Source: Ignavibacteria bacterium
GTDB lineage: Bacteria; Elusimicrobiota; Endomicrobiia; PHAN01
Reading direction: 5' to 3'
DNA length: 31,670 nucleotides
Assembly (NCBI GenBank): GCA_041694835.1
Contig: JBGFRZ010000009.1
Location: 1-31,670, forward strand
Shown here: one piece after another, positions 1,915 to 27,791 of the stretch
Layout of the letters: every line of letters starts with the position of its first letter
Numbering within the stretch: position 1 is the first letter of the stretch
Program-made: the position numbers and the translations under genes
The notes under the pieces: generated by a model
The model's input: only the letters and a program-made list of their open reading frames with translations
Told to the model about the DNA's origin: nothing
The model's database searches: none

Positions 1915-1949
1915 ATCCCCTCTCGTAGTCGTTCTGTTTTTGATGCTTG

Positions 1950-5782: not shown

Positions 5783-6814
5783 TTATTGGCGAGACAGAGC
5801 GGTGGGAAGATTAAATTTGTAAGAAAGAGAAATTCGGTGGGTTCCGTAGATGTCTTTTATACCCGAGAGATTCCATACAAAACCATAGTTGATGTTAAAC
5901 ATTTCTTTATAGTAATAGCCAAATCCGACTGAAAATGAGCCTTTATTTCGTGTTCCGGTGTTCAATCCGCCTCGTAAAGCAACGGAGTTCTCTTGAAGCC
6001 ATTTTTCTACACCTGTTAGCAACATCACATCTGCCATATCAAAAATAATATCCATTGTAACATTTAAATCGGATATCCCGTAACAAATACCTGGCGTAAT
6101 CGTCGGTTTCAAAGCATCTTCTGGTTTCTGAGATAAACCAACGTTAGGACTGTTTATGTTTTTGATGGCAAGTCCTGCATACCAATCTTCAACGAAGTTA
6201 TACATAACACCCAAATCAAATCCTAAAGATAACTTTGTAGTATAACCATACTCATTAAACAAATCATATTGCCGGGTGTATTCATCAGACCCATATGAAA
6301 TGCTCAATATCTTTGTGTTTAGACCCATAGAAAGAGTATCGCTTATTTTACGCGCGTGAGAAATATAAACCGAGTTTTCTTGATAATAATTTCCATAGTG
6401 AAGATTTTTCCACGCAAGACCTAAGGCGCTCGTGCCGTAAATATCTACCTCGGGATGGACAAAACCGACGAAAGAATTTCCTAAACTACTTTCATCTGGA
6501 CCTGAAAGTCCCCAAAATAACCTGGCATATTCAAACGAAAATTCAGGTTTGAAGAGATCGAGCATACCAGCCGGATTATAATGAATGCTATATACATCAT
6601 CGGACAATGCCACATAAGCATTGCCCATTCCGAGCGGTCTTGCTCCGACGCCAAGTTCACCAAAAGCCCCGTAAACAACTGGTAGACGGTAGAAGGTAAA
6701 AGGTAGAAGGTAAAAAAGAAGGAGCAGTAGTGCAGTAGAGCAGTAGCGCAGTAGTATTTTTGAAACTGCTGCTCTGATGCTCTGCCTTGTGCTCTTGCGC
6801 TCTTGTGTCCTCAT
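5783..6814 (-). CDS. PorV/PorQ (UPF0164)-like outer-membrane beta-barrel protein; start uncertain
   Basis: GVGARPLGMGNAYVALSDD..IHYNPAG N-terminal motif, amphipathic strands, C-terminal THRISLSYKF. Confidence 0.8.
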   Translation of the reverse strand: MRTQERKSTRQSIRAAVSKILLRYCSTALLLLLFYLLPFTFYRLPVVYGAFGELGVGARPLGMGNAYVALSDDVYSIHYNPAGMLDLFKPEFSFEYARLFWGLSGPDESSLGNSFVGFVHPEVDIYGTSALGLAWKNLHYGNYYQENSVYISHARKISDTLSMGLNTKILSISYGSDEYTRQYDLFNEYGYTTKLSLGFDLGVMYNFVEDWYAGLAIKNINSPNVGLSQKPEDALKPTITPGICYGISDLNVTMDIIFDMADVMLLTGVEKWLQENSVALRGGLNTGTRNKGSFSVGFGYYYKEMFNINYGFVWNLSGIKDIYGTHRISLSYKFNLPTALSRQ

Positions 6815-6895
6815 CTCTGCCCTCTGTCCTCTATTCTCTGTCTTTTATTCATTTCACTAACCCTATTGCCTGCTGCCTATTCCCTGTTGCCTGTC
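6681..6895. repeat. Cluster of degenerate 7- and 8-mer tandem repeats
   Basis: GGTAGAA x5 (6681-6715), GCAGTAGN x4 (6724-6755), plus CTCTTGYG-, CTCTGTC- and TTGCCTG-like runs. Confidence 0.75.
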
Positions 6896-6898
6896 TTT

Positions 6899-8602
6899 TT
6901 ATCTCGCTACCACCACGACTCCGTTTATTGTTTTGTTTCCTTCAATCTGATAGATATACAAACCACTCGCAACCGGTCTTCCTCTGGAATCTTTTCCGTC
7001 CCAATAAAGAATGCAGGGGTTATCGGCGGCGCCCACTTCGTGGTTCAAATCGCAAACGTATGCGCCATTAATATCAAATATTTTTCCGACGAATCTTTCA
7101 TTATATGGGTTTACTATGTTAAATCTGATTTTGTTAAATTCGGCGTTTTTATCGTCGGGAGAAAAGATTTTTCTGGGGGTAATCGTTAATTGCACTTTAT
7201 CCGAAAGCGACTGCGAGAGTTTATATTTACTAAGATGACTCGTTTTTATCTCTATGCTCTTGTCATCTTTATTGTTCCTCCCCCCGTATTTCACCCACTC
7301 TATGCCGTTATGATAAAAAATTGCAAGTTTTCCTTCGGCGGTATTTACTGGAATTCCAATTTTGTCCACAATCAGGTCATTGTCGATATCGTAATAGAAT
7401 TTTAAGACAACCGCATCTGAAAACTTAAATTTTGGGGGCAATGCCGTGTTTGTGTCCGCTCTGTATGGCTTAAATTCAATGACGCTGATATCTCCCTGTT
7501 TTTCCTCGTTTTTAAGTCGGGCAAGTTTCAATACGATATCTGCCCCCATGGAATTATTTGCTCCTAATAATATTGATGCAGCAGAAGCGGGTATCTCAAT
7601 AGAAGCGGTAATTTTGCCGCTTTCTTCTAAAACAGCCGCTAATTGTGCTTCGGGACGAGAATCAATGAGCATAGAGGCCTCGCTCTCGTTGCCACTCGTA
7701 TCATAAGCCGTTATCCTATAATATACTATTGTCGCATTGTTCTCATTATCCAACCAACTATGTGTGTGTGATGAAAGAGCGACTTTGAACGTCCATAGAT
7801 TTTGAGAAATCCTTTGTTGCGTGGATTTATAAACTTTATAGCCCGCAAGGTCATTGCATTGCGAACCATCGGTATTTAATGTTACGGCGGACCACAGAAT
7901 ACGAACTCTTCCGTTTTCAATAACTGTTCTGATTCCCGAAGGGGGATTAGGTTTTACGGTATCTACGATGGTTGCTTGAACCCCAACCTTAAAATTAGCG
8001 GTTATGGTATCGTTGCCTGCATGCGGCCAGTTGTCCTCTGTCCCTTGACCATTCTGATTTTTTACAACTACACTTATGACTGATGAATCCCCTCCTTTTG
8101 CGTCGGAAGGAACATAAACCATAACAAAGAAATAAAAAGTCGCATCTGCTGCCAATGAATCCGTAGTTGAAATCTCGGTGTTTTCACCCGACTGGCGAAC
8201 TCCATCGGAATTGTCGTCTTTTAATATTTTAACGCTCCAATTTTCGCCCGAAACCGTAGATGCCGAAATCGTAAAATTATCAGCGGCATTGGCAAGATTA
8301 CAGAAATTAAAGGAGACATATCGTGTTGTGCCCGATGTAAGCGTCTGCGGCGAGACGGATGGTAATTGAGAAATAGCATATCCTGTTGACACCGCGACTA
8401 TTGAGAGATGAGATGTAAAATAAAAAGTCGTTCCCATGGCATCCCTTGAAACAATTGTATCGCCCGGTTGATCGCAGATATCCACCACTCCGGAATCTCC
8501 GCCATTTCTAATAAGTGTTCCGGCGGAAGTTCCAATAGACAAAAGATGAGAAACGTCTGCCGTCAGAATTATTAGAGAGAATAATATTTTCTTTAACTTC
8601 AT
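6899..8602 (-). CDS. Secreted protein: N-terminal region paralogous to 8982-9938, Fn3 domain, C-terminal FlgD/T9SS-CTD-like domain
   Basis: Signal peptide; GTSAGTLIRN start; DDNSDG motif; YYRITAYDTSGNES (Fn3); C-terminus IFSP...IFDING...WDGKDSRGRPVASGLYIYQI. Confidence 0.8.
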   Translation of the reverse strand: MKLKKILFSLIILTADVSHLLSIGTSAGTLIRNGGDSGVVDICDQPGDTIVSRDAMGTTFYFTSHLSIVAVSTGYAISQLPSVSPQTLTSGTTRYVSFNFCNLANAADNFTISASTVSGENWSVKILKDDNSDGVRQSGENTEISTTDSLAADATFYFFVMVYVPSDAKGGDSSVISVVVKNQNGQGTEDNWPHAGNDTITANFKVGVQATIVDTVKPNPPSGIRTVIENGRVRILWSAVTLNTDGSQCNDLAGYKVYKSTQQRISQNLWTFKVALSSHTHSWLDNENNATIVYYRITAYDTSGNESEASMLIDSRPEAQLAAVLEESGKITASIEIPASAASILLGANNSMGADIVLKLARLKNEEKQGDISVIEFKPYRADTNTALPPKFKFSDAVVLKFYYDIDNDLIVDKIGIPVNTAEGKLAIFYHNGIEWVKYGGRNNKDDKSIEIKTSHLSKYKLSQSLSDKVQLTITPRKIFSPDDKNAEFNKIRFNIVNPYNERFVGKIFDINGAYVCDLNHEVGAADNPCILYWDGKDSRGRPVASGLYIYQIEGNKTINGVVVVAR

Positions 8603-8648
8603 AATCTATACCGATGATTTTTAATCGCCGCAAAGCGTCAACTGAAAA

Positions 8649-8734
8649 TTGACGGCTACAAAGTTGACGACTACAAAGTCCACAGTCAATAGTCCATGGT
8701 CCACATATCAACCTATCAACCTGTCAACTTATCA
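8649..8734. repeat. Short tandem repeats (15-mer x2, 7-mer x4, 8-mer x3)
   Basis: TTGACGRCTACAAAG x2, GTCCACA-like x4, TCAACCTR-like x3. Confidence 0.65.
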
Positions 8735-8761
8735 TCTTCCTGCCGATAAATCGGCAACTAC

Positions 8762-8932
8762 TGCTCTGTGACATAAGTCTTTGATAGTGCCGCTCACGAG
8801 TGTCGGGAACAAATCCCTCTTGGCCCCCCTTTAATAAAGGGGAAATATAGGGGGATTTACAAAAATTGTCACCATTGATGTTGAGCGGTTCTGACAATGA
8901 CGACTACTATCAATAACTTCTGTCACAGAGCA
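8762..8932. mobile_element. 171-bp MITE-like element with nested palindrome
   Basis: TIRs TGCTCTGTGACATAAGTCTTTGATAGT / ACTATCAATAACTTCTGTCACAGAGCA, direct repeat CTAC on both flanks; internal AAATCCC...CCCCTTT..AAAGGGG...GGGATTT hairpin (8811-8858). Confidence 0.75.
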
Positions 8933-8981
8933 CTACTTTCTATAAATTTCTAAAAACACTCACCGATTACTGATTGCTTTT

Positions 8982-9938
8982 TTATCTTACATTGACTCTA
9001 AACTCTACATATGCACTCGTGCCGGCGGTCAAGTCGCCAAGATTTACAGTAATAAGTTGATCGCCGCTGTTCCATGCCACACCATCACTGATTGACTCAC
9101 GAGTCCCACCGGTTGACCATATACATCTGACTATGCTTCCGGTTATATAGTCACATTGTAGCGGTAGTTTGTCTCTATAAATCACATTTGTTGCAGTCCC
9201 TGAACCGGTTGCAGTAATCGTAGAGGTATAAACAATCGGGTCGGTAAATGGTCTTGCTGTACTTCTGTTTGCTCCTTTTACCATTTGCAAAGTAGTTACG
9301 CTGGATCTCGTTGTGGTGTCGTCGATGCGAGTGTCGTTGCCGGCGGCTGGCCAATTGTCTTCAGTGCCCGAACCGTTCCGATTTCTTGCTGTCAGACGAA
9401 TCGTTGAAGTCGAGCCGTCTACGGCATTTGAAGGAATCACAACGCTTACAAAGAAATAAAAAGTCGCATCTGCTGCCAATGTGCCCGTAGTTGAAATCTC
9501 GGTGTTTTCAGTGGGTTGGCGGATGCCGTCGGCATTATCATCTCTAAAAATCCTGGCCGGCCACGTCGCACCAGCAATTACACTTGTAGAGAGCGATATG
9601 GTATCAGTCGCGTTACCAAGGTTGCAGATCGAATACGCATAGTTTGCCGTAGCCCCCGGAAGAAGCGTTTGGTCGGAGGGGGCCGGTAAAGCGGTCAAAG
9701 CAAAACCCGTTGACACAACTACACCCGCCAAATTACTGGCAGCGAAACTTGTCGTATTGCCGACGAGCCACTGGACTATAGTATCTCCAGCGGTATCAGC
9801 AAGATTTGGTGAACCAGCATCGCCGCCATTCTGGATTTGCGTGTTGGCGGCGGTGCCTGCTGCAAAAAGACGAGAACCAGAAAAAACTGAAACCACTACT
9901 ACGGCAAAAACCAAAAACAAAACCTTTAATCTACACAT
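8982..9938 (-). CDS. Secreted DUF11-domain protein, putative fibre shaft subunit
   Basis: ATG at 9938 follows GGAGG; signal peptide ending LFA; mature start AGTAANTQIQN; C-terminal DUF11-like LQMVK...IVYT...ATNVIYRDKLP...YITGS...LGDLTAG...VEFRVNVR. Confidence 0.8.
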   Translation of the reverse strand: MCRLKVLFLVFAVVVVSVFSGSRLFAAGTAANTQIQNGGDAGSPNLADTAGDTIVQWLVGNTTSFAASNLAGVVVSTGFALTALPAPSDQTLLPGATANYAYSICNLGNATDTISLSTSVIAGATWPARIFRDDNADGIRQPTENTEISTTGTLAADATFYFFVSVVIPSNAVDGSTSTIRLTARNRNGSGTEDNWPAAGNDTRIDDTTTRSSVTTLQMVKGANRSTARPFTDPIVYTSTITATGSGTATNVIYRDKLPLQCDYITGSIVRCIWSTGGTRESISDGVAWNSGDQLITVNLGDLTAGTSAYVEFRVNVR

Positions 9939-9954
9939 ACACCCTCCCATTTTA

Positions 9955-12900
9955 TTATTTTATCTGCGCTTTAAACTCAATGACGACACTCTCCGCCACA
10001 CCAATTGTGGGAATGTTAACTTTTACCAGATTATTGCTTATATCAAACTCTGCCTCATCTCCGTCTAAAGCATCAGTTTTTAGGACACCGCCAAGATGTA
10101 TCGTTTCTGCCACATAATTACAATTCTGCGGGATTTTATCTCTGATGACAACATTGCTTTGCGCAATATTTCCATTGTTTGTAACCATAATTCTGTAAGT
10201 TATCACACCACCAGGTCGGGATGAACTTGTGACTTCAAATATTGATTTTGTCGCCGTTATTACAACAAAGTTGGTAATTGTTGATGTGGTATTAGACAAT
10301 TCTGACCAATTTCTTTGCTTGAAAGGTGGCGTCTCTTCGTCGGCGGTGCGAATACGGAAATAATATGTGCTTCCTCCGAGTAAACCTGTAACTGTATAAC
10401 TTTGAATAGAACCTGATGTGGTAGAGGTGGAAAGATAGATGGACAGGAAGGTAGAGAGGTCGGAAGAAGTAGAGTGTCTTATCTCAAATTGACCGTTAAC
10501 GATATTGCCGACGTTGCCGTCGTCGCCGGGAGATGTCCATCTCAATCTAACGTTTCTTTCTCCAAAACCAGGCTCGGCAAATAAATCGCTAACCATTGCC
10601 GGCGGCACGTTATCAAACTGGGCATATGCCGACGCTGTATTTGAAAATACCGACCAGTTGCTACGTTCATCGGCGGTTCTCAGACGGAAAAAATATGTTC
10701 TTGCCGGCTCAAGCCCTGTGATTGTATAATTCTGAATAGAACCTGATGTAGAAGAGGTGGAAAGATAGATGGACAGAAAGGTAGAGAGGTCGGAAGAAGT
10801 AGAATAGCGAATTTCAAATGAACCGTTAACGATATTGCCGACGGTGCCATCGTCGCCCGGCGAAGTCCATTGTAAATTTATTTCACCGGAATTGACCCCG
10901 ACAGCAGCGGTCAAATCAGTAATTACTGCTGGTGGTGTAACATCAACTTGTGCCCAGGTGGTTGCAGCGTTTGAAATACCTGACCAGTTGAATGCTTCGT
11001 CGCGTGTCCAGAGACGGAAGAAGTATGTCGCCCCCGGCGACATAGCAAATAGCGAATAGCGAATAGCAAATAGTGGTGAGACACCACTGGTGGAGATAAT
11101 TACCTGAGCATTTGAGGTTGACCAAACTACTTCTGTGTATGTTGAGTATTGAACTTTGAACATTGAACCTGAAACGAGTGTTCCTGACCAGTTATCGTCG
11201 CCGGGCGATATCCATGATAAAGTAATTTGTCCTTCTGTCGTGCCCGCTTGAGCCGATAAACTTGTAACCGCGGCAGGTGCTGTTATGTCGCCTAAACTCC
11301 GGAGTGTGTAAGTATATGATGCTGTTACTACCGAGTTAGAATTACCCCAGTCGTTACAAGCAGATGCATCATAAGGTGTGGAATCGGTTATACCGGGTTT
11401 GTTTTCTGCAGGACGGAATATATGAACAATATGCACATTCTGTCCTGTTGTAATGCCAAGGACTGAAAGTGGGATTCTAAACTCTGCCCAGTCATTTGTC
11501 TTGTTAGATGCAAAATCCGTTCCTGAAACCATACTTGCGCCAGGCCCCCAGTTGATTCCGTCGGATCTAAATCTCAACATACCGCCCAAAGAAGTTGCAG
11601 TCGGACCGTTTATCCAGCCGTTTACTGCAATATCAGGTTTATGATTCCAGTTAATCGTTGTATTACTCATCCACGGGTCTGTTGTTGTTCCACTGACAGT
11701 TACGGTATCAAAGAAGAAGTTATAGTGTGCAGAGAGTCCGTCATTCCACGGGTCGCCATTAAACTGAAATCCGAGATATAAAAATTGCGCGTCGTTTGTA
11801 ATATAGAGGTCACGAGCGCGGTTATCGGGCGATTTAAAACCAACGCTTATAGTATTTGGGACACTGCCCCAGAAAGAATCTTTTGTTCCATCAATAACTG
11901 GCGTGAATGGCCCGCATGGCGATGGCTGCGGTGTGGCATAAGTTGTGGCGGTATTAGAAAGTCCCGACCAGTTGGGGACTTCATCTGCAAGACGTAGACG
12001 GAAATAATAAGTTGACGCAGGGACAAGCCCTGCAACTGTGTAGTTCTGAATGGAACCTGAGGCAGAAGAGGTAGAAAGATAGAGGGGTAGAAAGGTGGAA
12101 AAGTCGAAAGATGTTGAATAACGGATTTCAAATTGACCATTGACGATGTTACCGGTATTGCCATCGTCACCGGTGGCTGTCCATTGCAGTTGCACAGTGC
12201 CTGCATCAGCACCGGGCTGTGCTGATAAATCGATAACGGCAGCAGGCGGTGTACTGTCATCCGACGGTATAGTATAAGTAAAGAACTGTGTCAAAGTCGC
12301 ACCGACATCAGCCCAGTCAGAGCAGGCAGAATCATAAGGTGTTGAATCAGAGACACCAGGTTTGTTGTCTGCAGGACGGAAAATACCGAGTATCTGTAAT
12401 GTTTTTCCTGCGGTAAGCCCGAGTGATGTTCTCGGTAGACGGAACTCAGCCCAGTTATTGTTTTTGTTTGAGCCAAAGTCAGTCCCGGAAGTCATTGATG
12501 TTCCGGTGCCCCACGCCGAACCTGTCCAGACATATCTTGTCATACCACCGAAAGATGTTGCACCTGTTCCGTTTACCCAGCCGCAAACGGCAATATCAGG
12601 TCTGTTGGTCCAGTTTATACCTGTGTTTGACTGCCACGGGTCTGATGAACCACCAGAAGTTGTATTAGTATCAATAAAGAAATTGTAATGCGCTGAACGC
12701 GCGGTTGGACTCTCGTCCCATGGGTCGCCACCAAACCAGAAGCCGATATATAAGTAATTAGCGTCGTAAGTAACAAAAATACCTCTCGAGAAATCGCCCG
12801 GCTGCCTTGAGTTGGGACTCGTTCCGACGGGAGTAGTTCCCCACGCAGCATCCTTCGTCCCATCCATTACCGGCGTAGGCGAGCCAGTGGCAACGTAATT

Positions 12901-18900: not shown

Positions 18901-21900
18901 ATCAATAGTTCCCGTTGACGCAAACAGTGTTGTGATAGTGTTTGGCGGAACTGTATCCGGCCTGGTTTCTGCCGATGCAACAATTTGTATTCCGGAGATA
19001 TTGTTTGATTCATCCTGCGTCTTTATTGCGATATAATATCTTGTGCCTTTAGCAAGGCCTGTGACTATCCTGTTTTCAGTTGTTCCCTGCGGTGAAACCG
19101 GCCAGTTTTGATTAAATACAGTTGCACTCTGCCACCACAATTCTACATTGCCCGTTGGTGAGAATGTAGCATATCGGACATGATATTTTGCTGTTGGCTC
19201 GTTGTTGCCGGTATATCCATCGTCGCCGGGTGCAGTCCATGTAAGATTTATTTCACCGTCATTAGCACCGGTTGATGCGACCAAATTTGTAATTGCGCCT
19301 GGTGGTGTTGTATCTACAGCGCCGGTATTAGAAAGCCGTAACGAAAATGAGAAAGTGCCATCGCCATAAATTTCCATCCCGTAACAATGCGGATTATTGG
19401 TATTATCAGATGTGCCGTCGGTAAAAGCGGTGTTAAGAGTTGTGCCACCAATGTTTAATGTAACCAGCCCACCACTTAAATTCCTGAAACCAAAAACAGG
19501 CGCTGAACTTATCGCAACAACATTTGTTTTACCATTAAAGTACATATCATAAGCATTTGGTACAATACCGAACCTGATATAAACCGCACCTGTAACTGTT
19601 TCTGAGTAATTTGCAGTTAATGTATCACTATAGAGTGCGATTGTTTTTCTTATATGGTTATCCGGTGAGATGAAGGTTATACTTGAACTCCAGACAGAAA
19701 CATTGTAAAGTGCGTTTTCATATACCCCGCCGTTCATCTCACGGAATGCAGATGTTTGTTTTGTTGCCACTTCTTCGCCTTCGTGTTCGCGATTGGTTGC
19801 AGTAGCGCCGATAAGTTGGAGCGCACCTACCGCGGGGTCATACGCAAACGCCGCAACAAGACGTCCACCGATTCTTTCAAACACTGCGAATACTTTATTA
19901 TTTTTCAGAATATATTCCGGCTCGCCATCTAAATCAATATCTGCTGATTGTACACTGACTGCCGACCACTGACCACCTGCCACTTCCTGTGCCCATCTTG
20001 CTGCTGAAGAAATTATTGTTGCATATCTTATATGCCCGTGCAGATACAGCGCCCAGCCGGAAATTGGATTCCAGGTAGTGTCAGGACCATCCCATTTAGA
20101 CCCCTGCTGGTCGTGCCATGCAGTCTCGTATGTAAGGGTATTGTAGACCATAGATGCATATTCTTTCATCTGTCCGCCGGGAGCATTACGAACCGCATCC
20201 CAGGCATCTCTTAAAATTGTTCCCGCCGTATTTATATGCCCGTAGGTTCTGTTTGATGGGATAGTTACACCAGCCCGCACAAACGGTTTCCGATTAGCAA
20301 ACGACTCTTCCAGTGAAGAACCCCAGTACCAGTTATCGTAAGAGCCCTGAGTAGCACGGTTCAGCCAGCAGTATGTCTTTATCGGAAGGTTTATGTTTGT
20401 GCCATGGTCAACAGGCGTCCAGTTACGGCTTAAAACATCTTCAAGTGTGACGGTTTCAATCCATTGTTTATTCGCAATCCAGCGAACAGTTTTGTCCCAG
20501 TTGTCAGGATTCGGATTGGCGGTGGCGTCCGTGAACGACCTGCCAGCATACGCTTCCCAGTCGTCAAATACCAGCACCAATTTTTGTTGGTCTGAATCCA
20601 TTGCGCGTTCTATCAACAGTTTTCTTGTGCCGATATGCAAACCACTATCCTGATTCCAGAATTTTGCACCATCAGGGTCGTAGTATCCGTAAGTTGATTG
20701 CACAGATGCATCTGACGGTGGTAATTCAGCACCTACTCTGACACCATTTATTAAAAATGTTAATACATTATTGATTTTATGCAGTTTGAATTTGTTCTGC
20801 CCGAGCAGACCCAAATTGCTGCTATAAAACCAATCCATAATATGATATTTATCATCCAATATAGTTGCTGTATAGCCCGTCGGCGAAGAAACATTCGCAT
20901 CGTAATAAAGTATATCCTGGAATGTCTGTCCACGAATAACCCGTTCCGGTGTCCAGAAGACCTTTGGCGTCTGCGACAAGCCGAAGACGTTCTTCAGCAG
21001 ATTGTCTCGTTGCCTTATTGATTCAGAATTGACGAAAAGTCCGGCAGAGGCGTTGTTTTCAAAATACGGCATAATATGCTCGGCAAGCACTCCGCCGATA
21101 ATTTTTACTTTCCCAGCAGATTCCATCGCTTTTACTCTGTTAATAAAAGATGGCTGTGCCCATTGTAGTGCAGAAGTTAGTGACCCGGAAATATGCAAAT
21201 TGCCTTTTACACCGTAATTTTCTATCGTATCCAGCCCGCGGACAAATCCTGTTTTGTTTGTAGCAGAACCGGGAGGCTCGTTTCTTTCTACCCAATCGCG
21301 GATATCTTTTGCCTGATTTATTGATTGATTTGCATGATATATAAACGCGTATTTTGCTCTTCCTGTTGATGCATTTGACAAAACATTTCCCCTTAAGAAT
21401 CCGCCTCCCCTGTCTATGGTGGCGCCTGCAGCATCTACCACATCAGAGCCGGGAATCTCGCCGAGACCACCATTAGTCCCGTCCTTTGTAGTATAAATTT
21501 GAAACCGCAATTCCTGTCCATCTGTCCAGCCGTAACTTTTCAAAAGTGCCTTATCAAGCGCAAACTCTACCGAGTCAAGCGCCGAGTTGAACCTCACGCC
21601 TTTAAATGCTGTATTTGAAGTTGACCAATCGTGCCTAAATACATTCCATACGGTGGCGTTGTCAATGGCAACGCAAACTTCCCATGGTGTATCTGTCTGC
21701 GTATCCGCAAAATCGGGAAGCCATGTTTGACCACCCGAAGCGCAGTCAATCGCAAGATAAATGTTCAGGTGAGAATTTTCGGCGAAAAGCCCAAGTTCAT
21801 GAATGTCCACCCGGAAGTAATAGTTATCCCTGCCTTCACGCGAATAAAATGCGACTAAATCTCTTGATGAATCATAGCCGTCATTGAAAACATAAGCATC

Positions 21901-24900
21901 TTCGCAGGGGTCAAGAACACGAACATCAGACGCCTTCCAGTCAAGGAAGTTCCCGTCAATAACGCGTTCTTCAAATTCAGGAAGAACCTGCGGCATTGCG
22001 CTTACTTGCGAAGATGGCGATGAAATACCCCCCGCTGTATCTGATGCCCGGACAACGATATAGTAAGTCGTTCCATTTGTTAAATTAGTAATTGTATAAA
22101 CTGTCGTTGTTTTTGATATAAGCGGACTTGAGTTAGGATAGGGGCCCGTGTTTACTGTTCCCCACCTGACAAAATATCCCGCTAAATCCGGCTCTGTATT
22201 AGCATTCCATGAAACACTTATTGTTCCACTGCTCGCAGTTGCCGCAACACCCGTCGGTGCGGCAGGCGGCGGGTCTTGACCTGCAACCGCATTCACACTA
22301 CCTGTCAAGCCGGATTTTTGTCTTGCCAGGTCCTCTGCTTCTATTTTGAAATGATATGTCGTCCCTGTGAGCAACCCGCCAATCTGATACGAAGTAGAAG
22401 TTGCAGAGACAATGTAAGTATAATTAGGATTTGCCGCCCATGTGCTGTTATAGATATTATATCTTTCCAAATCAAATTCTGTGTTAGCATTCCAGCCAAG
22501 TAAAACGCCTCCAATATTACCTTGTGCTGAAAGTCCTGTCGGTATCGCCGGTATTGCATCGCCCGCGACATTCCATTTGTTTGATACATACATCTTCGGA
22601 CCGTTGTTTGGATTTATTGTGATAAGGCGGTTATTGTTTGGTGCAGTGCCAAAGTCGTTTTCCCATGTTCCACCATTCATTACATATTTATACTGCAACT
22701 GCACACCCGCCGAAAGGTTGAGTGTAATTCTCCAGACACCTAACAAATTACCCGTCTGCTGCGTCATTGCATAATGAGTAGTATTCCACAATGGCTGAAG
22801 TGTATTTTGAGCGATTGCGACGGATGTTACATTACCTAACCCGCGCATGTCAACCTGAAATATCACTTCAACCAAATCCATCGGTCTTGCAGAAACTTCA
22901 GACGAATAATTTGACTCGCCACCCAAAGTATTCACAGCGGTAAGTTTGTAGTAGTAAGTAACCCCATTTGTGAGCGATGTATTAGAGTAAGTTGTTGCAC
23001 CAGAAATAAGTGACTGGTTCACCTTAAAATATACGCCAACTGACGAGCAATACAAATTATAGCCCGCAAGATTTGATTCAGTATTCGGATTCCACTTCAG
23101 GTCAACTTTTTGATTCCCGGCAGTTGCAGTAAGTCCCGTCGGTGCTGATGGCGGCGAAACTGATTGTGCAAGTGCTGATACTTCTGTCGTCGGCGGGCTT
23201 TCGTTACTTAAACCATCTATCGCGGTAAGTTGATAGTAGTAAGTTACACCGGCCGTCAAGCCAGTACTCTGGTATGATGTTTGAACGGTTGTTGGCGTCG
23301 CAGTCGCGGTTTTGAGCAAGAAGCCACAGGAATATGTTGATACATAGAGTTTGTAATTTGCTAAATCCGTCTCTAAATTTTTCGTCCAGTAAACTATTGT
23401 TGATGTTACACCGCCGGTAGCATAGAAATTGATTGGTGTCTGGGGTGGTCTGTTATCAATCGCGACGGGTGAAGTCGTTATTGGCGCAGAAAACGAACTT
23501 TCCGGATTCGTCCCTGTTGATTTTACACTGGTCACCGAGTACTGATAAGTTGTGCCATTAACAAGTGCAGTATTAGACGGTGTAGAAATAGTCACAGCAT
23601 AACCCGTGGTCCAGGTTATCAGCGATGCAAGCCGTACATAAGTTGAGTTGCTCACGCTCCACTCATAAATGTTATATCCTGCAAGAGAAACGCCTGTTAC
23701 CGGCTCCCACAATAAATCAATCCGCTGGTTTTTTGCCGTCGGCGTTAGTCGTGTTGGTGCAGGTGGTGGGGTATTATCTGCAGGACTTACCGTGATTTTC
23801 CAATTTGCCCCGCCGTTGTTGTCCCAGGTGCCATCATCCCACTGAAAGACAAAATTTATTTCTGAAACTGACTGACTGCCTAAAAACGGGCCGAGTGTAA
23901 TATAGTATGAAGTCCCGTTCCATAAGAGTCGCGTCTGAACCGCCTGGACCGAATGAATTGTCGTCGTAGAGTTCGCAGGCCAGTATTCCGACGACGGTTG
24001 GGTCCAGTTATTCACGCCCCAGTGCAATTTGCCCGGCTTAACCTGTGAGGCATATATCGTCACCTGCTGGTCGGCCGTCGGATTCGTCGGCGTCCACAAT
24101 TGCGTTCCTCCGCCGCCGGCGCCCGCGCCATCGCCAACCCAGACATGCTGTATCGGAGAGCGACGGACATTCCCCTTTTTGTCAGTCGCTTCAACATAAT
24201 AGTCAACTAATTTGTTTGGTCCAACGTTTATCTCAGCCCAATATCGCAACGGCAGATATTTCGGCTGAACGGGCGTCGGGATTTGTTCAGTGCCGTTTAT
24301 GAATAGTTTGACCGGCCATGTGCCCGACGACATCACGATTTCCTGCCACGTTCCGACCGCTGTTCCACCAGCATAAGTGAAATTATCTGGATGAACCGGT
24401 GTTTTATTGGTGCCGGTTGCTGTTCGGTATTTCAATTTTACCGACGAGAGCCCTGAAGCGTCATAGGCGAATGTAAATACATGAAAATTAGTTGGATAAT
24501 TCCAGGATTTCCATTTGTATGCGCAACCGAAATTCAAAGCACCTGGATTATACGGAAATCTCTGAGGCACCCAGATGGTCGGTGGGACCGTTTCCGAGAA
24601 TCCCGACGGAAGTTCCCCCGTGTGTCCAAGCACGGCGTCAGCATAATCAGCAGCGCGATTTCCCCCGACGACGGGTATGAAAGTAAAATCCGACGATGTA
24701 CCATAATAAATATGGCCTGAGTCGCCGAAGCCCAGAAGATAATGCCAGGCATATTCTAAATTATTTCCGCCTGTTTCTGGACGGACAATTCTATAAATAT
24801 TTGGCGCAGAACCAAATCTCTGCTCGGCAGTCAAAACACGATTCGTGAGTGCCGTCGTGATTGCCCAGAACTGTGAGTTGTCGTCCCAGGCGGTCGCGTC

Positions 24901-26223
24901 AAAAATCGGATGTTCGTTCAACCCGCGCGGGTTAATCCATGGCCAATTCCAGTTTGAAAAAGTCGGAGAACCAAAGTCGCCCGCTGCATTTACCCATGGC
25001 CCATCTTCAACATGAATAACATCATTTATATCAACGGGATGGTCTGACAGATACTGCGATACCTGAGACGGCGTATAGCCCCTTGCAGATGCGCCACTCG
25101 CCTTATTCGGAGTATTCGTCATATAGGAATCAAACCCACCACCCCATGCGTTGTCACCGTCGTGTGCTAATACAACAAGTGGCGGTTTCCCGGGCTCTGC
25201 CGCAGCTGCCGGTGCATCAAACAAATCCACAGGAAATGTCTGATAACCATCAACATAACTTTCATAATCTGCAAAGGGAACGGCGATAATTTTATGTATC
25301 GTTCCATCGTTGGGGTCAACATATTGAGTATATCTTGGTCTGTATGAATATCTTAGTTCGTTCGTTGTAGGTCTTCCATCAATATTCGCTTTACGCCATT
25401 GTGGAGTATAACCACCAGGGAAAGAATTTCGCTGGTCGGCACGGTTTGGGGGTTCAGTGTTCATTCCGTTTCCAGGCGTTGCTACGGTTGACCACTCGGG
25501 ATAAGCCCTTGAGATATGCGAGTTTGCGACATAAGTCCAGGTTATACCTTCTTGAAGAAGATAAGGTATCATCCTTATTGAAAACGCGCCTTCCAAGGGC
25601 CAGAAACCGGTTGACATCGGCACATGATTTCCCCAGTGTTCTGAATAAATTGCTTTATATGTCTGTATGTATCTTCGGGCAAGTGTATCGTCGGGAAGGA
25701 GTGGGAAGAAGTTATGATGGAAACCAGTTAACACAATATCCATCCGCGTTTTTCCGCCTGAAGTCATCCAGCCGCGCGCTTCGCGCCAGGGGTCTTTCCA
25801 GCTGGGTGAATATCCGAGCCGGAACTGAGCGCCGAGCGCCCCGACATTCTCAGCAAGCGCACCCGTGTAAGAAACAGTAAAACCCGCCTCGGGATAAGTA
25901 CCGATTGTGCCCAGGGCGTCCCTGCATCTGTACTGATATGCCGCTACTCTATCGGCTAAACCAAAGATAGCGGAAAGGTCGTTGTTGGGATGTCCCGGCC
26001 ACGGTGAGTTGTTTTTGTTGTCTATCGACTCAGGCGCCAACTCCCATCTTGCGATTCCCGCCCTTGATTGGTTCGGCCAGTAAATTGGCTGATGGTCGTG
26101 CCAGTGATTGACATAATGGAGAGATGAACCAGCGTAAAGACAGGTAGAAAGGTAGAAAGGTAGAGAGGTGGAGAGGTAGAAAGCAAAACCTAAGCATCTT
26201 TTTTTAATTTTCATTCTACACAT
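9955..26223 (-). CDS. Giant (5422 aa) secreted multi-domain alpha-glucan hydrolase: 3 GH57-like regions, CBM-like modules, Fn3 repeats, C-terminal DUF11
   Basis: HDHQP/FWPLE/HDGDN, HANQ/FWTPE/FDDWE and HMHQP/FPPE/HDGDN motif sets; two LHWGVNNW...WDNN modules; YKYV..G.WE module; many WTAPGDDG...TYYF Fn3 units; N-terminal signal peptide. Confidence 0.85.
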   Translation of the reverse strand: MCRMKIKKRCLGFAFYLSTSLPFYLSTCLYAGSSLHYVNHWHDHQPIYWPNQSRAGIARWELAPESIDNKNNSPWPGHPNNDLSAIFGLADRVAAYQYRCRDALGTIGTYPEAGFTVSYTGALAENVGALGAQFRLGYSPSWKDPWREARGWMTSGGKTRMDIVLTGFHHNFFPLLPDDTLARRYIQTYKAIYSEHWGNHVPMSTGFWPLEGAFSIRMIPYLLQEGITWTYVANSHISRAYPEWSTVATPGNGMNTEPPNRADQRNSFPGGYTPQWRKANIDGRPTTNELRYSYRPRYTQYVDPNDGTIHKIIAVPFADYESYVDGYQTFPVDLFDAPAAAAEPGKPPLVVLAHDGDNAWGGGFDSYMTNTPNKASGASARGYTPSQVSQYLSDHPVDINDVIHVEDGPWVNAAGDFGSPTFSNWNWPWINPRGLNEHPIFDATAWDDNSQFWAITTALTNRVLTAEQRFGSAPNIYRIVRPETGGNNLEYAWHYLLGFGDSGHIYYGTSSDFTFIPVVGGNRAADYADAVLGHTGELPSGFSETVPPTIWVPQRFPYNPGALNFGCAYKWKSWNYPTNFHVFTFAYDASGLSSVKLKYRTATGTNKTPVHPDNFTYAGGTAVGTWQEIVMSSGTWPVKLFINGTEQIPTPVQPKYLPLRYWAEINVGPNKLVDYYVEATDKKGNVRRSPIQHVWVGDGAGAGGGGTQLWTPTNPTADQQVTIYASQVKPGKLHWGVNNWTQPSSEYWPANSTTTIHSVQAVQTRLLWNGTSYYITLGPFLGSQSVSEINFVFQWDDGTWDNNGGANWKITVSPADNTPPPAPTRLTPTAKNQRIDLLWEPVTGVSLAGYNIYEWSVSNSTYVRLASLITWTTGYAVTISTPSNTALVNGTTYQYSVTSVKSTGTNPESSFSAPITTSPVAIDNRPPQTPINFYATGGVTSTIVYWTKNLETDLANYKLYVSTYSCGFLLKTATATPTTVQTSYQSTGLTAGVTYYYQLTAIDGLSNESPPTTEVSALAQSVSPPSAPTGLTATAGNQKVDLKWNPNTESNLAGYNLYCSSVGVYFKVNQSLISGATTYSNTSLTNGVTYYYKLTAVNTLGGESNYSSEVSARPMDLVEVIFQVDMRGLGNVTSVAIAQNTLQPLWNTTHYAMTQQTGNLLGVWRITLNLSAGVQLQYKYVMNGGTWENDFGTAPNNNRLITINPNNGPKMYVSNKWNVAGDAIPAIPTGLSAQGNIGGVLLGWNANTEFDLERYNIYNSTWAANPNYTYIVSATSTSYQIGGLLTGTTYHFKIEAEDLARQKSGLTGSVNAVAGQDPPPAAPTGVAATASSGTISVSWNANTEPDLAGYFVRWGTVNTGPYPNSSPLISKTTTVYTITNLTNGTTYYIVVRASDTAGGISSPSSQVSAMPQVLPEFEERVIDGNFLDWKASDVRVLDPCEDAYVFNDGYDSSRDLVAFYSREGRDNYYFRVDIHELGLFAENSHLNIYLAIDCASGGQTWLPDFADTQTDTPWEVCVAIDNATVWNVFRHDWSTSNTAFKGVRFNSALDSVEFALDKALLKSYGWTDGQELRFQIYTTKDGTNGGLGEIPGSDVVDAAGATIDRGGGFLRGNVLSNASTGRAKYAFIYHANQSINQAKDIRDWVERNEPPGSATNKTGFVRGLDTIENYGVKGNLHISGSLTSALQWAQPSFINRVKAMESAGKVKIIGGVLAEHIMPYFENNASAGLFVNSESIRQRDNLLKNVFGLSQTPKVFWTPERVIRGQTFQDILYYDANVSSPTGYTATILDDKYHIMDWFYSSNLGLLGQNKFKLHKINNVLTFLINGVRVGAELPPSDASVQSTYGYYDPDGAKFWNQDSGLHIGTRKLLIERAMDSDQQKLVLVFDDWEAYAGRSFTDATANPNPDNWDKTVRWIANKQWIETVTLEDVLSRNWTPVDHGTNINLPIKTYCWLNRATQGSYDNWYWGSSLEESFANRKPFVRAGVTIPSNRTYGHINTAGTILRDAWDAVRNAPGGQMKEYASMVYNTLTYETAWHDQQGSKWDGPDTTWNPISGWALYLHGHIRYATIISSAARWAQEVAGGQWSAVSVQSADIDLDGEPEYILKNNKVFAVFERIGGRLVAAFAYDPAVGALQLIGATATNREHEGEEVATKQTSAFREMNGGVYENALYNVSVWSSSITFISPDNHIRKTIALYSDTLTANYSETVTGAVYIRFGIVPNAYDMYFNGKTNVVAISSAPVFGFRNLSGGLVTLNIGGTTLNTAFTDGTSDNTNNPHCYGMEIYGDGTFSFSLRLSNTGAVDTTPPGAITNLVASTGANDGEINLTWTAPGDDGYTGNNEPTAKYHVRYATFSPTGNVELWWQSATVFNQNWPVSPQGTTENRIVTGLAKGTRYYIAIKTQDESNNISGIQIVASAETRPDTVPPNTITTLFASTGTIDGSIILSWLAPGDDGNVGTAKEYDIRLSSIASDSPAINLTKFSQAQLVSTLSPIPYPLPSGSFQAMTVTGLIPGNTYYFAMRAKDASIWSDLSNGATSIARIDNIPPSDITNLVATTGLSAGNINLSWTAPGNDGTIGTASAYTIKISSTANITNNTQFDAALPLSALSPTQIQIPATAGMTESLIVTGLVPGATYYFAIRARDQANNINNWVSDLTKNTTNFARAGLSAVTDFRASTQTTISIRWDWSDITGETGYQIVADTFTYNASPVLAANTTFYVESGLSPNQKLIRRVKAFFDGLTSLSNSATSWTLSNPPTGSNIVSVSVSSISISWSANNNPDYTQYQIERSTTGSVFLPLYLSTSLTYSDISITEGSTYFYRVRSLNGNNIASSFDTTVSTTVPRIPPAAITNLSALTGATQGSVNLSWTAPKEDGATGGAVTSYIVKYASFPVDDTNWSQATTASNPPAPLTPGFTQTMTIMNLTAGATYYFRIKSVDDAWNISPISNSASSIAAGVGAQLPKPPIYIAFLWHMHQPIYYPYENVVQTNDANRYSFSVINVHTSRTGPYTSWPKGAVEKGLGLRKLGAQVSFSGSLMENINNIVAANRGFWSGWQNDYITARNWLTQAEPSIPPGAVSAGGGNPRMDMVAFGHHHPLMGLIDYNDIRRQIQLHRLRFGQVFGTTPPYSKGIFPPENAFRPEMIPALVDEGIQWVLVDNVHFDRTVKGYPWNSGGNLYEPNPADQLNNPAGITWLQLTNLWAPTRVSVPWGYRPHYVAYRDPTTGETKKIIAVPGARYEGNEDARGGFGALQYEAVMSQYEQYNTDARRPMLVVLPHDGDNYGGGTESYYGSNFQNFVNWLLANPHRFVCTTIQDYLDMFPPDPVNDVIHVENGSWSGADNGDPEFLKWNAPPDATGYSHDRNSWAVMIAAKNRLDTAEKNLPAASLSDILNNTGNNTAKAWHYYYCGQQSCYWYWDGTEIWDSNPTRAANQAVHYADLVLGANPADTVGPSIYYPQRDPYNPGGNEWGKLQTSTFTVWTLVYDVSGLSSVQLKYRIDPDGVRDSSNGLYSGGTWNSISMTSRDWASRTNPAPTYKASEYSARVTGVSNALVDYYVEATDTKGNISKSPILHVWVGQATTPSPTTLWTPTNPTTNDVITIRASVDNKPGKLHWGVNNWIQPNSVYWPGNSTTTIWGTDGKAVQTVLLSTETGKYFIQLGPFNKSQQQVSQINFVFNWNDGTWDNNSNQNWNINLSVVAATPTVSITYPAQNFSVTTSSVDISATATDDVGVTKVEFFYRSTATVTWTFISSHTVSPYVTSWNVTGLNEDSDYILQARAYDADNNVGISPDVKVRINLINQPPSVTILEPVGGELWTGSRNIRWTATDPDGDTLGITLQYIRSDITWTNIATNLLNIGTHTWNTTFLPNSTSYMVRVIASDNGGLTGISISGQFTLRNYPGTITDLTASSALDGQGIELSWTAPGADWTVATCSAYDIKYSTSISASPAISIDNFNSARSVSQFSPIPPPSPPGSGQTLLLTGLLSNATYYFAIRSRDEVPLWSEISNGATAYTLPDIIAPAAVANLSATVLSANSVRLTWTSPGDDGNSGTLLSGSKFVVKYSTNSADGWSSVNVVTISTSNVSPGSSQIRIIENLLNGTSHYFWIRTYDEVGNESELSNGATAYTPAGVTFRNITVDGSLADWLPAENMGLRNGNTFYFTWSSTAIYICYAGPDVNTTNNDFFVLFDTHTDYNTTVGTTSPVTAWDGAENHILPFRADYALCVEGTGYRAVRNWTGSLWNDPGNGGGIASVSLGATVNEIAILRSTLNNPTKLRVLMFHKWETARNVYNAYPTQNPAPNDASNVTFTHFYDVNLVSGVNPKDSPVLSTTTANTDNIPPSAINNLSASPGPSAGQISINWTATGDDGTSGNVSNGYWRIAFSTNPAFNFQLANYNIQISTSYSPSSGHSYTISELIWGATYYIRLWAADENNNWSAISNGATNYVATGSPTPVMDGTKDAAWGTTPVGTSPNSRQPGDFSRGIFVTYDANYLYIGFWFGGDPWDESPTARSAHYNFFIDTNTTSGGSSDPWQSNTGINWTNRPDIAVCGWVNGTGATSFGGMTRYVWTGSAWGTGTSMTSGTDFGSNKNNNWAEFRLPRTSLGLTAGKTLQILGIFRPADNKPGVSDSTPYDSACSDWADVGATLTQFFTYTIPSDDSTPPAAVIDLSAQPGADAGTVQLQWTATGDDGNTGNIVNGQFEIRYSTSFDFSTFLPLYLSTSSASGSIQNYTVAGLVPASTYYFRLRLADEVPNWSGLSNTATTYATPQPSPCGPFTPVIDGTKDSFWGSVPNTISVGFKSPDNRARDLYITNDAQFLYLGFQFNGDPWNDGLSAHYNFFFDTVTVSGTTTDPWMSNTTINWNHKPDIAVNGWINGPTATSLGGMLRFRSDGINWGPGASMVSGTDFASNKTNDWAEFRIPLSVLGITTGQNVHIVHIFRPAENKPGITDSTPYDASACNDWGNSNSVVTASYTYTLRSLGDITAPAAVTSLSAQAGTTEGQITLSWISPGDDNWSGTLVSGSMFKVQYSTYTEVVWSTSNAQVIISTSGVSPLFAIRYSLFAMSPGATYFFRLWTRDEAFNWSGISNAATTWAQVDVTPPAVITDLTAAVGVNSGEINLQWTSPGDDGTVGNIVNGSFEIRYSTSSDLSTFLSIYLSTSSTSGSIQNYTITGLEPARTYFFRLRTADERSNWSVFSNTASAYAQFDNVPPAMVSDLFAEPGFGERNVRLRWTSPGDDGNVGNIVNGQFEIRHSTSSDLSTFLSIYLSTSTTSGSIQSYTVTGLLGGSTYYFRIRTADEETPPFKQRNWSELSNTTSTITNFVVITATKSIFEVTSSSRPGGVITYRIMVTNNGNIAQSNVVIRDKIPQNCNYVAETIHLGGVLKTDALDGDEAEFDISNNLVKVNIPTIGVAESVVIEFKAQIK
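26142..26181. repeat. AGGTAGAR octamer x5 within the signal-peptide coding region
   Basis: AGGTAGAA AGGTAGAA AGGTAGAG AGGTGGAG AGGTAGAA encoding FYLSTSLPFYLST. Confidence 0.8.
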
Positions 26224-26648: not shown

Positions 26649-27791
26649 TTAGTTATTGGGAACGGGGGGATTTATAGACGGGTTCTTAATTACCTTAACC
26701 ACATAGCCACCTTTACTTAATCGCCGCCTATTGGCGCCGCAGGTCTCTCTCACAACGAGTTTTACCGGCAGAATTTCTTTTATCTGTCCATCAGCGCTAT
26801 CCTCTATCTGTTTAATGAGTTCTTCACAGGCAACTTTGCCCATTTGATAGATGTTATATTCGACTGTGGTCAGCATCGAATCCCCCGCGGCAGACATTCT
26901 TATATTGTCCATACCGACAACTGCAATATCATCAGGAACTTTTAACTTTTTTTCTTCTACTGCTCTTATAGCGCCGAGTGCCATTAAATCGTTGCCGGCA
27001 AATACCGCTGTTGGGCGAGCAATAACACCACGACTTGCTTCCTTTCCGAATCGTCTAATTGTTACATCGCCACATCGCTCCAATAACTTACACATCGCCT
27101 GATAACCCGTTTTTTCGTCGAAATCCGCTTTAAGTATTATTGATTTGTCCACAGGTATGCCTGCTTCTCTAAGTGCTTTTTTATAGCCCATGAATCTATC
27201 TTGTGCGCTAACTACTTTGAAATTGCCGGTGATAAACGCAATCCTTCTATGTCCAAGTTCAATCAGGTGCCTTGTTGCCAAATAGCCGCCAGTTAAGTTG
27301 TCGCCAATGACATAACTCAAATTTAATTCTGGTATGTATGAACCCACCTGGATAAATGGCATATTGTCTTTTTCAAAATCAATCAGGTAAGCATCATCTA
27401 AAGTTGAACCTACATATAACATTCCATCAATAGTTCGTTCTTTGAATAATTGTAGATATTTTTTATAGAAGCAAAATTCATAAGTTGCGGCTTCAAGCAA
27501 GATTTTATAGTCGTTCTTCGATGCATAATCGTAAATACCACTTAAGACCTCACCAAAAAACGGATTTGAAAATATGTGCGATATATGAGGAACTACAACG
27601 CAAAGTGCTTTTGTATTGTTTGTAGATAACATCCTCGCCGCAATGTTTGGATAATAACCTGATTGTTTGATGACTCTGAGCACTCGTCTTTTTGTTGCTC
27701 TTGAAATTCTTGAACTGCCAGATAACACCAGTGACACAGTCGCAGTCGATACGCCGCATTGTTTTGCGATATCAGATAGTTTTACTGTCAT
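26649..27791 (-). CDS. LacI-family transcriptional regulator
   Basis: LSDIAKQCGVSTATVSLVL HTH, YYPNIAA hinge, LIELGHRRIAFI, PTAVFAGNDLMALG, VPDDIAVVGMD. Confidence 0.95.
   Translation of the reverse strand: MTVKLSDIAKQCGVSTATVSLVLSGSSRISRATKRRVLRVIKQSGYYPNIAARMLSTNNTKALCVVVPHISHIFSNPFFGEVLSGIYDYASKNDYKILLEAATYEFCFYKKYLQLFKERTIDGMLYVGSTLDDAYLIDFEKDNMPFIQVGSYIPELNLSYVIGDNLTGGYLATRHLIELGHRRIAFITGNFKVVSAQDRFMGYKKALREAGIPVDKSIILKADFDEKTGYQAMCKLLERCGDVTIRRFGKEASRGVIARPTAVFAGNDLMALGAIRAVEEKKLKVPDDIAVVGMDNIRMSAAGDSMLTTVEYNIYQMGKVACEELIKQIEDSADGQIKEILPVKLVVRETCGANRRRLSKGGYVVKVIKNPSINPPVPNN

Follow-up and report, generated by a model that had tools for sequence, protein, structure and literature searches.

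Chaperone-usher pili such as Fim and Pap are non-covalent fibers built with a chaperone and an usher and closed by a terminator subunit that has no acceptor. SpyTag/SpyCatcher and DogTag/DogCatcher, reportedly engineered from intact Gram-positive adhesin domains, are said to be pairs of polypeptides that ligate spontaneously. Here we describe an operon encoding a giant secreted protein (the tip), a shaft, an anchor, and an outer-membrane barrel, found in a 31,670-nucleotide (nt) stretch of DNA (hereafter the window) from an uncultured member of the Elusimicrobiota with a genome of 1.9 Mb (Ignavibacteria bacterium; GTDB Elusimicrobiota; Endomicrobiia; PHAN01; GCA_041694835.1, contig JBGFRZ010000009.1, positions 1-31,670). 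The best explanation of this operon, and in our judgment a probable one, is that its products form a modular assembly on the cell surface, joined through a CLIPPER (DUF11) isopeptide domain of which different polypeptides supply the parts.

According to the available part of its description, CLIPPER (DUF11, PF01345) is an intramolecular isopeptide domain of fibrillar adhesins with a crystal structure (9IFR) and a triad of Lys715, Asp748, and Asn806, and the survey given there covers intramolecular bonds only (PMC12617251). For Clostridium perfringens BsaA, the accessible text describes "donor strand exchange and lock", which involves N35, K74, and the catalytic E56 and proceeds without a sortase (PMC11580942). 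The archaeal thread Saci_0406 is described, in the portion of the paper at hand, as a head-to-tail donor-strand complementation with a covalent inter-subunit link (PMC9715654). Finally, the grappling hooks GhpA and GhlA appear in the available preprint text as giant single-chain cargos of the type IX secretion system (T9SS) and DUF11 filaments (bioRxiv 10.1101/2025.08.19.671072).

DUF11 Domains Divided between Neighboring Genes

The operon consists of four co-directional open reading frames (ORFs) on the minus strand, which the ORF listing and translations place in the order giant, shaft, anchor, barrel. The giant (9955-26223), the putative tip or cargo, is a secreted protein of 5422 amino acids (aa) with a leader, three GH57 modules, many fn3 domains, Big_7, and a C-terminal truncated DUF11, and it contains no donor segment. 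The shaft (P0002; 8982-9950), whose first ATG lies 4 nt beyond the giant stop codon, is 322 aa long (318 aa from the second ATG) and comprises a signal peptide, a donor hairpin, an immunoglobulin (Ig)-like N-domain, and a truncated DUF11 acceptor. The anchor, or terminator (P0003; 6899-8602; 567 aa), has a signal peptide, a donor hairpin, an N-domain 46% identical to that of the shaft, middle domains, and a putative C-terminal sorting domain, and lacks an acceptor. The last gene encodes a PorV/PorQ-family outer-membrane barrel (P0004; 5783-6814; 343 aa), the probable partner of the anchor sorting domain.

The DUF11 domains that end the giant and the shaft are both cut short. The tip acceptor (9958-10275), a DUF11 core without its last hairpin, matches PF01345 over profile positions 11-84 of 114 at 37.4 bits (cut-off 24.6) and TIGR01451 at 44.5 bits (cut-off 24). 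The shaft acceptor (residues 213-322; 8985-9314) matches PF01345 over positions 3-84 of 114 at 21.9 bits and TIGR01451 at 32.9 bits, above the cut-off of 24. Both proteins stop at profile position 84, with 30 positions remaining, in agreement with the original prediction, made from the sequence alone, that they stop right after the penultimate DUF11 strand. The strings, coordinates, and codons listed with that prediction also all agree with the ORFs: the Lys codon of the tip is at 10246-10248 (ITATKS), that of shaft Lys225 at 9276-9278, that of shaft Asn41 at 9828-9830, and that of anchor Asn33 at 8504-8506. The accompanying Asp codons are at 10138-10140 in the tip (within IRDKIP) and at 9171-9173 in the shaft (Asp260). 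Directly before their stop codons, the giant, shaft, and anchor translations read IEFKAQIK, VEFRVNVR, and VVVVAR, respectively, none of which is an LPXTG-type signal. The Asn-bearing final strands are absent within the DUF11 domains of the giant and shaft; the Asn sits in an N-terminal hairpin. The fold was originally taken to be CnaB-like, whereas the accessible text on the family describes DUF11 as CnaA-like (PMC12617251).

In both the shaft and the anchor, an Asn-bearing donor directly follows the signal peptide, as in BsaA: after a hydrophobic leader, the mature shaft begins GTAANTQIQN and the mature anchor GTSAGTLIRN. The donor had been predicted to be a single strand of 10 residues, but it is instead a two-strand hairpin of ~50 residues, located at residues 31-80 of the shaft (9711-9860) and residues 23-76 of the anchor (8375-8536). 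The donors of this subfamily have an invariant NGGDxG...DxxGD loop between the hairpin strands (9765-9830 and 8441-8506 in the window), with residues G12, D14, G16, D22, G25, and D26 present in 9/9 anchors. This loop, which is absent from the canonical DUF11 hairpin, could be metal-binding.

The part of DUF11 that the acceptors lack was characterized from complete domains. With a profile built from the truncated C-terminal domains, 1772 DUF11 domains were identified among the 90-odd long repeat proteins that the library search had returned. Of these domains, 493 reach the profile end; 492 complete internal domains from 59 other proteins were considered, and removal of near-duplicates left 272 non-redundant tails. 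These tails, which follow complete DUF11 cores, have the consensus ..PAGNPITNTATVTYDY..SNTVTTTV. Judged from this consensus, the tail of a complete DUF11 is a hairpin whose first strand bears the Asn of the published Lys-Asp-Asn triad.

A group of ~550-aa relatives (n = 17) contains two copies of the unit of hairpin, N-domain, and DUF11 core. Of the two DUF11 domains, the first is complete, with an internal GTxIxNxAxxxY behind it, and the last is truncated; the motif is also found at the start of the protein. All 17 proteins have N41, K475, and D510, and the internal intact domain lacks K and D in the same 2 of the 17 (alignment read by eye). The N-termini of these relatives match the tail profile at E values from 4e-8 to ~1e-3 (vs. 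2068 ORFs of the window's own genome). When core and hairpin were joined in a script, the score against the full DUF11 profile rose by 19-27 bits in 15/15 relatives, to a score reached by 0/100 controls for each. There is also an unsplit form, a 2286-aa ORF in another genome (G133) that repeats hairpin, N-domain, and DUF11 core at least five times. Pfam gave no match on isolated 64-residue N-termini. It is mainly homology to relatives with a strong likeness that indicates that the window donors are the missing DUF11 part.

The weak match of the window donors to the canonical hairpin profile is also what would be seen if the C-terminal domains were complete, compact Ig domains and the N-terminal motif served as a signal for sorting or recognition, or formed the initial strands of the N-domain, without any strand exchange; the DUF7507-type relatives, compact seven-strand domains according to the available text of PMC12617251, count in the same direction. 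We regard this as very unlikely. In AlphaFold2 (AF2) models of the mature anchor, which has no acceptor, residues 1-54 have a predicted local distance difference test (pLDDT) score below 50 (block means 34-45), whereas the adjacent N-domain scores 83-89; the hairpin is thus disordered beside a folded N-domain, which shows that it is not part of that domain. Where an acceptor is present, in the mature shaft, the hairpin region (residues 1-50) reaches pLDDT 86-96. The alignments behind the two models differ in depth (9 rows for the anchor and 16 for the shaft), and the models, judged by pLDDT, bear on the place of the hairpin outside the N-domain and not on pairing in trans. Moreover, three anchors (L001-L003) carry the hairpin without a following N-domain, and in the relatives the C-terminal core and N-terminal hairpin together reconstitute the full profile.

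Conservation of the Gene Order and of the Triad

A profile search of 1.84 billion representatives returned 6599 matches at E ≤0.001, mostly ordinary DUF11 repeat proteins. Among 63 proteins shorter than 1000 aa, 34 have the N-terminal motif right after the leader together with the C-terminal ..FxVxIx strand; among the 34 are the protein from the window itself, five members of clusters, and P0041, a false match. Only seven proteins of similar length, again including the window's own, match P0002 at E ≤0.001; one of these comes from an Elusimicrobiota metagenome-assembled genome, according to its source name. The triad is strictly kept in this close family: N41, K225, and D260 are invariant, with the same C-terminal strand, in 6/6 close homologs and in one 28%-identical protein. 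Across 16 proteins of 315-422 aa, K is conserved in 16/16, N in 15/16, and D in 15/16, with the N-to-S and D-to-E changes occurring in the same single protein. The donor Asn is present in eight of nine anchors, and the Lys and Asp of the tip end are invariant in all four tip ends aligned.

The three closest metagenome loci all have the order tip end, shaft, anchor. A search of one genome per species found no close relative; a scan of the phylum gave matches at E ≤1e-15 in 6 of 301 sampled genomes (the window's own included) and none in the two same-family genomes searched. In a genome from another family of the same phylum (G010), a GH57/fn3 giant of 5454 aa shares the N-terminus of the window's giant and has a truncated DUF11; next come a shaft of 328 aa, a sorting-domain anchor, and a barrel with 37% identity to P0004 (E 1e-65).

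Scanning one genome per species by pattern yielded 80 loci, which together with the three metagenome loci and the window make 84, one of them without a classed gene. The ORFs of each locus were classed by our own profiles as acceptor-only (A), donor plus acceptor (DA), or donor-only (D). The full order of acceptor-only, donor plus acceptor, and donor-only is found in 37 of the 84 loci (15 as A DA D, nine as A A DA DA D, seven as A A DA D, five as A DA DA D, and one as A A DA D D). Many other loci end at contig ends or begin with a DA gene, and five have an acceptor-only gene after a donor-only gene. The carriers span >10 phyla and include Latescibacterota, Neomarinimicrobiota, Ignavibacteriales, Bacteroidota, Chlorobiaceae, Acidobacteriota, cultured strains of Deinococcus, Woeseiaceae, Gallionellaceae, and Geobacter. 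The tips vary by locus and contain no Pfam domain, CBM6/CBM35 with Ig repeats, or GH57, while the last gene often encodes a 1500-2400-aa protein with a peptidoglycan-binding OmpA domain. The original prediction had equated gene order with assembly order from tip to shaft to anchor; this logic has strong support from the conservation and the 84 loci, and also from the contrast between the AF2 models, while trans complementation, a Lys-Asn bond, and polymerization are proposed in addition.

Many clusters of the wider family (L022, L023, L052, L061, L063, L067, and others) have, between the tip and shaft genes, one more gene for a secreted protein (~160-370 aa). This protein consists of a single truncated DUF11 with no donor and often no Lys, and might cap donor hairpins or act as their chaperone; no such gene is present in the window.

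With 4 nt between the giant stop codon and the shaft ATG, and a domain cut exactly at the gene boundary, the genes could be taken for fragments of one broken giant adhesin gene. However, the shaft and the anchor each have their own hydrophobic leader, and the same boundaries are found in 50-60%-identical relatives, in another family of the phylum, and across phyla, so that we give this explanation almost no credence.

The triad residues co-vary between neighboring genes. In loci whose shaft donors all carry Asn, the donor-only proteins carry Asn in 36 of 37 cases; in loci of the Bacteroidota and Ignavibacteria types, whose shaft donors carry Ser or Thr, K and D are retained together in 0 of 33 acceptor-only proteins, although the loci are kin and the counts are not independent. 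Given Ser/Thr donors and acceptors without K and D, the covalent lock looks optional in the family, and from its residues the window's lineage looks to have retained it. As a separate observation, loci L026-L051 (Bacteroidota, Ignavibacteria) combine Ser/Thr shaft donors and tips without K and D with a last shaft that often keeps K and D and an Asn in the anchor (13 of 20 donor-only proteins); from this residue pattern, only the basal joint may be covalent there.

The existence of these Ser/Thr-donor clusters, in which many acceptors lack K or D, indicates that the architecture works without the triad, and the window proteins could likewise be joined by strand complementation in trans with no isopeptide bond at all. 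Some DUF11 domains do lack the bond, according to the accessible part of PMC12617251. We nevertheless think a purely non-covalent assembly unlikely, as the triad varies little or not at all in the window's subfamily, and in the ~550-aa relatives the triad is stricter at the split domain (17/17) than at the intact internal domain (15/17).

Proposed Assembly, Anchoring, and Cargo

What is observed is that the domains are split, that this anatomy is conserved, and that the operon has a consistent logic; building on these observations, we infer pairing in trans, a covalent bond, more than one shaft copy per chain, an assembly site, and an export route. The acceptor would be a DUF11 core that ends just before the last hairpin and provides the first-strand Lys and the catalytic Asp, and the donor the Asn-bearing hairpin with which the next mature protein begins. 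Following export by Sec, the shaft hairpin would complete the DUF11 at the end of the giant, and the DUF11 of the shaft would then be completed by a further shaft or by the anchor, which, having no acceptor, would end the chain. An isopeptide bond between K225 and N41, assisted by D260, and its equivalents at the other joints would probably lock the joints without an enzyme. The anchor sorting domain and the adjacent PorV-like barrel would fix the chain to the outer membrane, and the finished chain, read from N to C, would resemble one giant T9SS-type cargo with a C-terminal sorting domain.

The ordered hairpin of the AF2 shaft monomer (pLDDT 86-96) would be accounted for equally if the hairpin closed in cis, completing the C-terminal DUF11 of its own chain to give a closed monomer, with at most the anchor hairpin plugging the tip and no fiber formed. 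Such closure would also fit the co-variation of donor Asn and acceptor K/D within one protein as well as between neighbors. We consider it decidedly unlikely. K and D are conserved in the tip, which lacks a hairpin, and the Asn hairpin is conserved in the anchor, which lacks an acceptor; the gene found between these two is always that of the shaft; and in the tandem arrangement of the unsplit form, a hairpin comes after the core of the preceding unit and not after its own. In addition, structure predictors are known to self-complement pilin monomers.

Several results weigh against a covalent assembly in trans and its export as proposed. At the level of the domains, the shaft PF01345 score of 21.9 bits is below the cut-off of 24.6, the P0002 and P0003 donors score 4.2 bits and about 0 bits, respectively, against the tail profile, and joining the window cores and hairpins adds only ~5 bits to the full-DUF11 score, giving a value reached by 6 to 25 of 300 controls. 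The AF2 shaft monomer is confident including its hairpin (pLDDT 93.5, predicted template modeling [pTM] score 0.74). The concordance of donor Asn with K/D is 77/104 across neighboring genes and 70/93 within one protein, a comparison that does not discriminate and is confounded by kinship and by small acceptor-only proteins. The locus classes are not fully independent, since the donor profile and the regular expressions were built from the family itself. The T9SS core is not clearly evident in the genome: a SprA-like ORF of 1713 aa is below the cut-off, PorU was matched over its own sorting domain with no catalytic part, the GldM search gave no match although its controls were also silent, and the GldK match is weak.

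Further structure comparisons were neutral. In a prediction of a three-chain complex (tip end, shaft as the scored partner, and anchor residues 1-192), a control with the third chain replaced scored like the real complex. Foldseek comparison of the shaft model with the PDB gave only generic matches to tandem Ig-like domains (integrin legs, AgI/II, CfaB, and PrgB) at template modeling (TM) scores of 0.2-0.4.

The C-terminal sorting domain of the anchor (6902-7165) appears to be T9SS-type and FlgD-Ig-like, and the last ~90 residues of the protein resemble at least 19 other C-terminal domains of the same genome. No curated sorting-domain model matches over its cut-off; a profile from 19 own-genome domains matches at E up to 0.01, and the likeness is plain by eye. 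The barrel matches the PorV/PorQ family with E 1.4e-22 and 80.7 bits (below the cut-off of 90), and 29 matches to this family, 11 of them over the cut-off, are found in the genome. For 16 of 20 sorting-domain genes, the operon anchor included, the 2 kb downstream contain a PorV-family match in the same orientation, which indicates that such a barrel is the usual partner of the sorting domain in this organism. A sorting-domain gene followed by its own PorV/PorQ barrel gene looks like a two-gene cargo-plus-barrel cassette; examples are C70:1274-2879, C65:25216-26461, and C62:15240-16684, as well as 5783-7165 in the window. The FlgD/CTD-like (C-terminal domain) tail that the original prediction assigned to the anchor is probably a sorting domain, with the correction that it belongs to a class common in this genome and usually followed by a barrel gene. 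The predicted PorV-like barrel as the next gene holds in the window and in the second family of the phylum, but it is not conserved beside the anchor in two of the three closest metagenome loci.

A wider and more speculative proposal, which we put forward as rather doubtful, is that split CLIPPER is a widespread enzyme-free "click" fiber of two-membrane bacteria that serves piggyback secretion here: the giant and the shaft, which have no sorting signals, would be ligated covalently in the periplasm to the anchor, the only one of the three with a sorting domain, and the chain would pass and dock at its dedicated PorV-like barrel as one cargo.

The three GH57 modules of the giant all score above the Pfam cut-off (PF03065, 21.2 bits), with best stretches at residues 157-234 (25522-25755; 31.2 bits), 1670-1807 (20803-21216; 29.5 bits), and 2969-3168 (16720-17319; 57.2 bits). 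The strings WPLEGA / HDGDN and PPENA / HDGDN are readable in its translation and presumably mark the catalytic regions of GH57. A phmmer search found no relative of two of the GH57 modules in the PDB at E ≤0.001, and nothing meaningful there for the last domain of the tip. A CT-rich stretch of ~27 nt that encodes F(L/Y)(P/S)(L/I)YLSTS occurs five times in the giant gene, with four copies in fn3-like domains and one in the leader (10405-10458, 10735-10788, 12049-12102, 17794-17847, and 26146-26199); of the 11 occurrences of the peptide YLSTS in the six-frame translation of the genome, five are in the giant.

The gap between the shaft and anchor genes (8603-8981) is 379 nt long, compared to 4 nt between giant and shaft. 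Within it lie a site resembling a promoter (8872-8844), a short inverted repeat near 8820-8836, and, at 8645-8679, a tandem repeat of 15 nt; a terminator scan 3' of the shaft gene found nothing above chance. The gap might set the ratio of shaft to anchor. Tandem repeats of 7-8 nt in four to six copies lie within coding sequence at 26138-26183, 6681-6715, 6722-6755, and 11037-11073, that is, in the leader-coding 5' ends of the giant and barrel genes and, in one case, deep in the giant gene. Since neither 7 nor 8 is divisible by three, a frameshift would result whenever a unit is added or removed, and these repeats could be a means of phase variation.

Pfam scans of the window ORFs of at least 100 aa revealed no sortase, chaperone, or usher, consistent with the original prediction, which had noted the lack of a sortase or chaperone-usher gene; no signal peptidase gene was found by Pfam among the window ORFs either. 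The remaining ORFs encode Cas9, Cas1, Cas2, a LacI-family regulator, a histidine kinase, a response regulator, and a dCTP deaminase. The LacI-family regulator (26649-27791, minus strand) is encoded directly upstream of the operon, and sugar-responsive control of the operon by this protein is possible. Directly downstream of the operon is a type II CRISPR-Cas set (659-5186; Cas9 of 1078 aa, Cas1, and Cas2), for which Tandem Repeats Finder detected no CRISPR array in the window.

Comparison with Described Systems

If the proposed assembly is correct, it would be a further bacterial route to surface fibers, with self-ligating subunits and no sortase, chaperone, or usher, and it would explain thousands of "DUF11 repeat" genes whose order of tip, shaft, and anchor is fixed across many phyla, including Deinococcus strains in culture. 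Since the tip is a three-module GH57 enzyme rather than an adhesin, the fiber would hold a starch- or glycogen-degrading machine away from the cell, similar to an amylosome. The family would also offer natural orthogonal ligation pairs for protein engineering, and it would raise the question of how such chains are exported. The giant enzyme cargo, and the anchorage by a sorting domain and barrel, are the unusual features of this locus.

A literature search turned up no publication that describes a DUF11 domain divided over two polypeptides. Possible precedents in the papers on tafi, F-ENA, and the grappling hooks were considered and rejected, as "DUF11" there denotes DUF1102 or an ordinary intact repeat. 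The assembly was originally called undescribed, which holds for the papers searched with respect to the split DUF11 but not for the principle of a donor strand with an isopeptide lock, which is published for BsaA and the archaeal threads.

Compared to chaperone-usher pili, the operon has in common an N-terminal donor strand, an incomplete Ig-like acceptor, a tip-first and terminator-last order, and a terminator without an acceptor; it differs in that the window encodes no chaperone or usher and a hairpin would be donated rather than one strand. SpyTag/SpyCatcher and DogTag/DogCatcher likewise split an isopeptide domain, and the split in this operon would be a natural one.

CLIPPER, as far as its available description goes, belongs to the same family (by Pfam and TIGR01451), shows the same triad order of first-strand Lys, catalytic Asp, and Asn near the end, and has the same role in the stalks of surface proteins, but its bond forms within one chain, whereas the Asn hairpin of the operon sits on the N-terminus of another secreted protein. 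The grappling hooks GhpA and GhlA, in the accessible preprint text, resemble the proposed chain in their thousands of residues and in their beads-on-a-string Ig/DUF11 domains on the cell surface; they are single polypeptides, while the chain of the operon is divided into genes whose products would be joined at DUF11 domains.

The archaeal Saci_0406 thread also dispenses with chaperone and usher and has a putative cap protein without an acceptor; in the part of the paper available, its link runs from the N-terminal amine to Asn57 of subunit n+2, and its fold is unrelated and its host an archaeon. A parallel in mechanism would be BsaA, in which an N-terminal segment enters the sheet of the next subunit and an Asn-Lys isopeptide bond forms with a catalytic acid, according to the accessible text. 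BsaA, as described there, is a homopolymeric matrix fiber of a Gram-positive organism with a TasA-like fold and a SipW peptidase. Neither that fold nor a SipW gene is found in the window, where Pfam gives DUF11 and Ig-like domains, and the operon combines the DUF11 fold with a two-membrane host, separate genes for tip, shaft, and anchor, and an enzyme as cargo. Thus, the combination of donor strand and isopeptide lock is known from BsaA and the archaeal threads, and what would be new, with respect to the literature searched, is a DUF11 domain split between genes.

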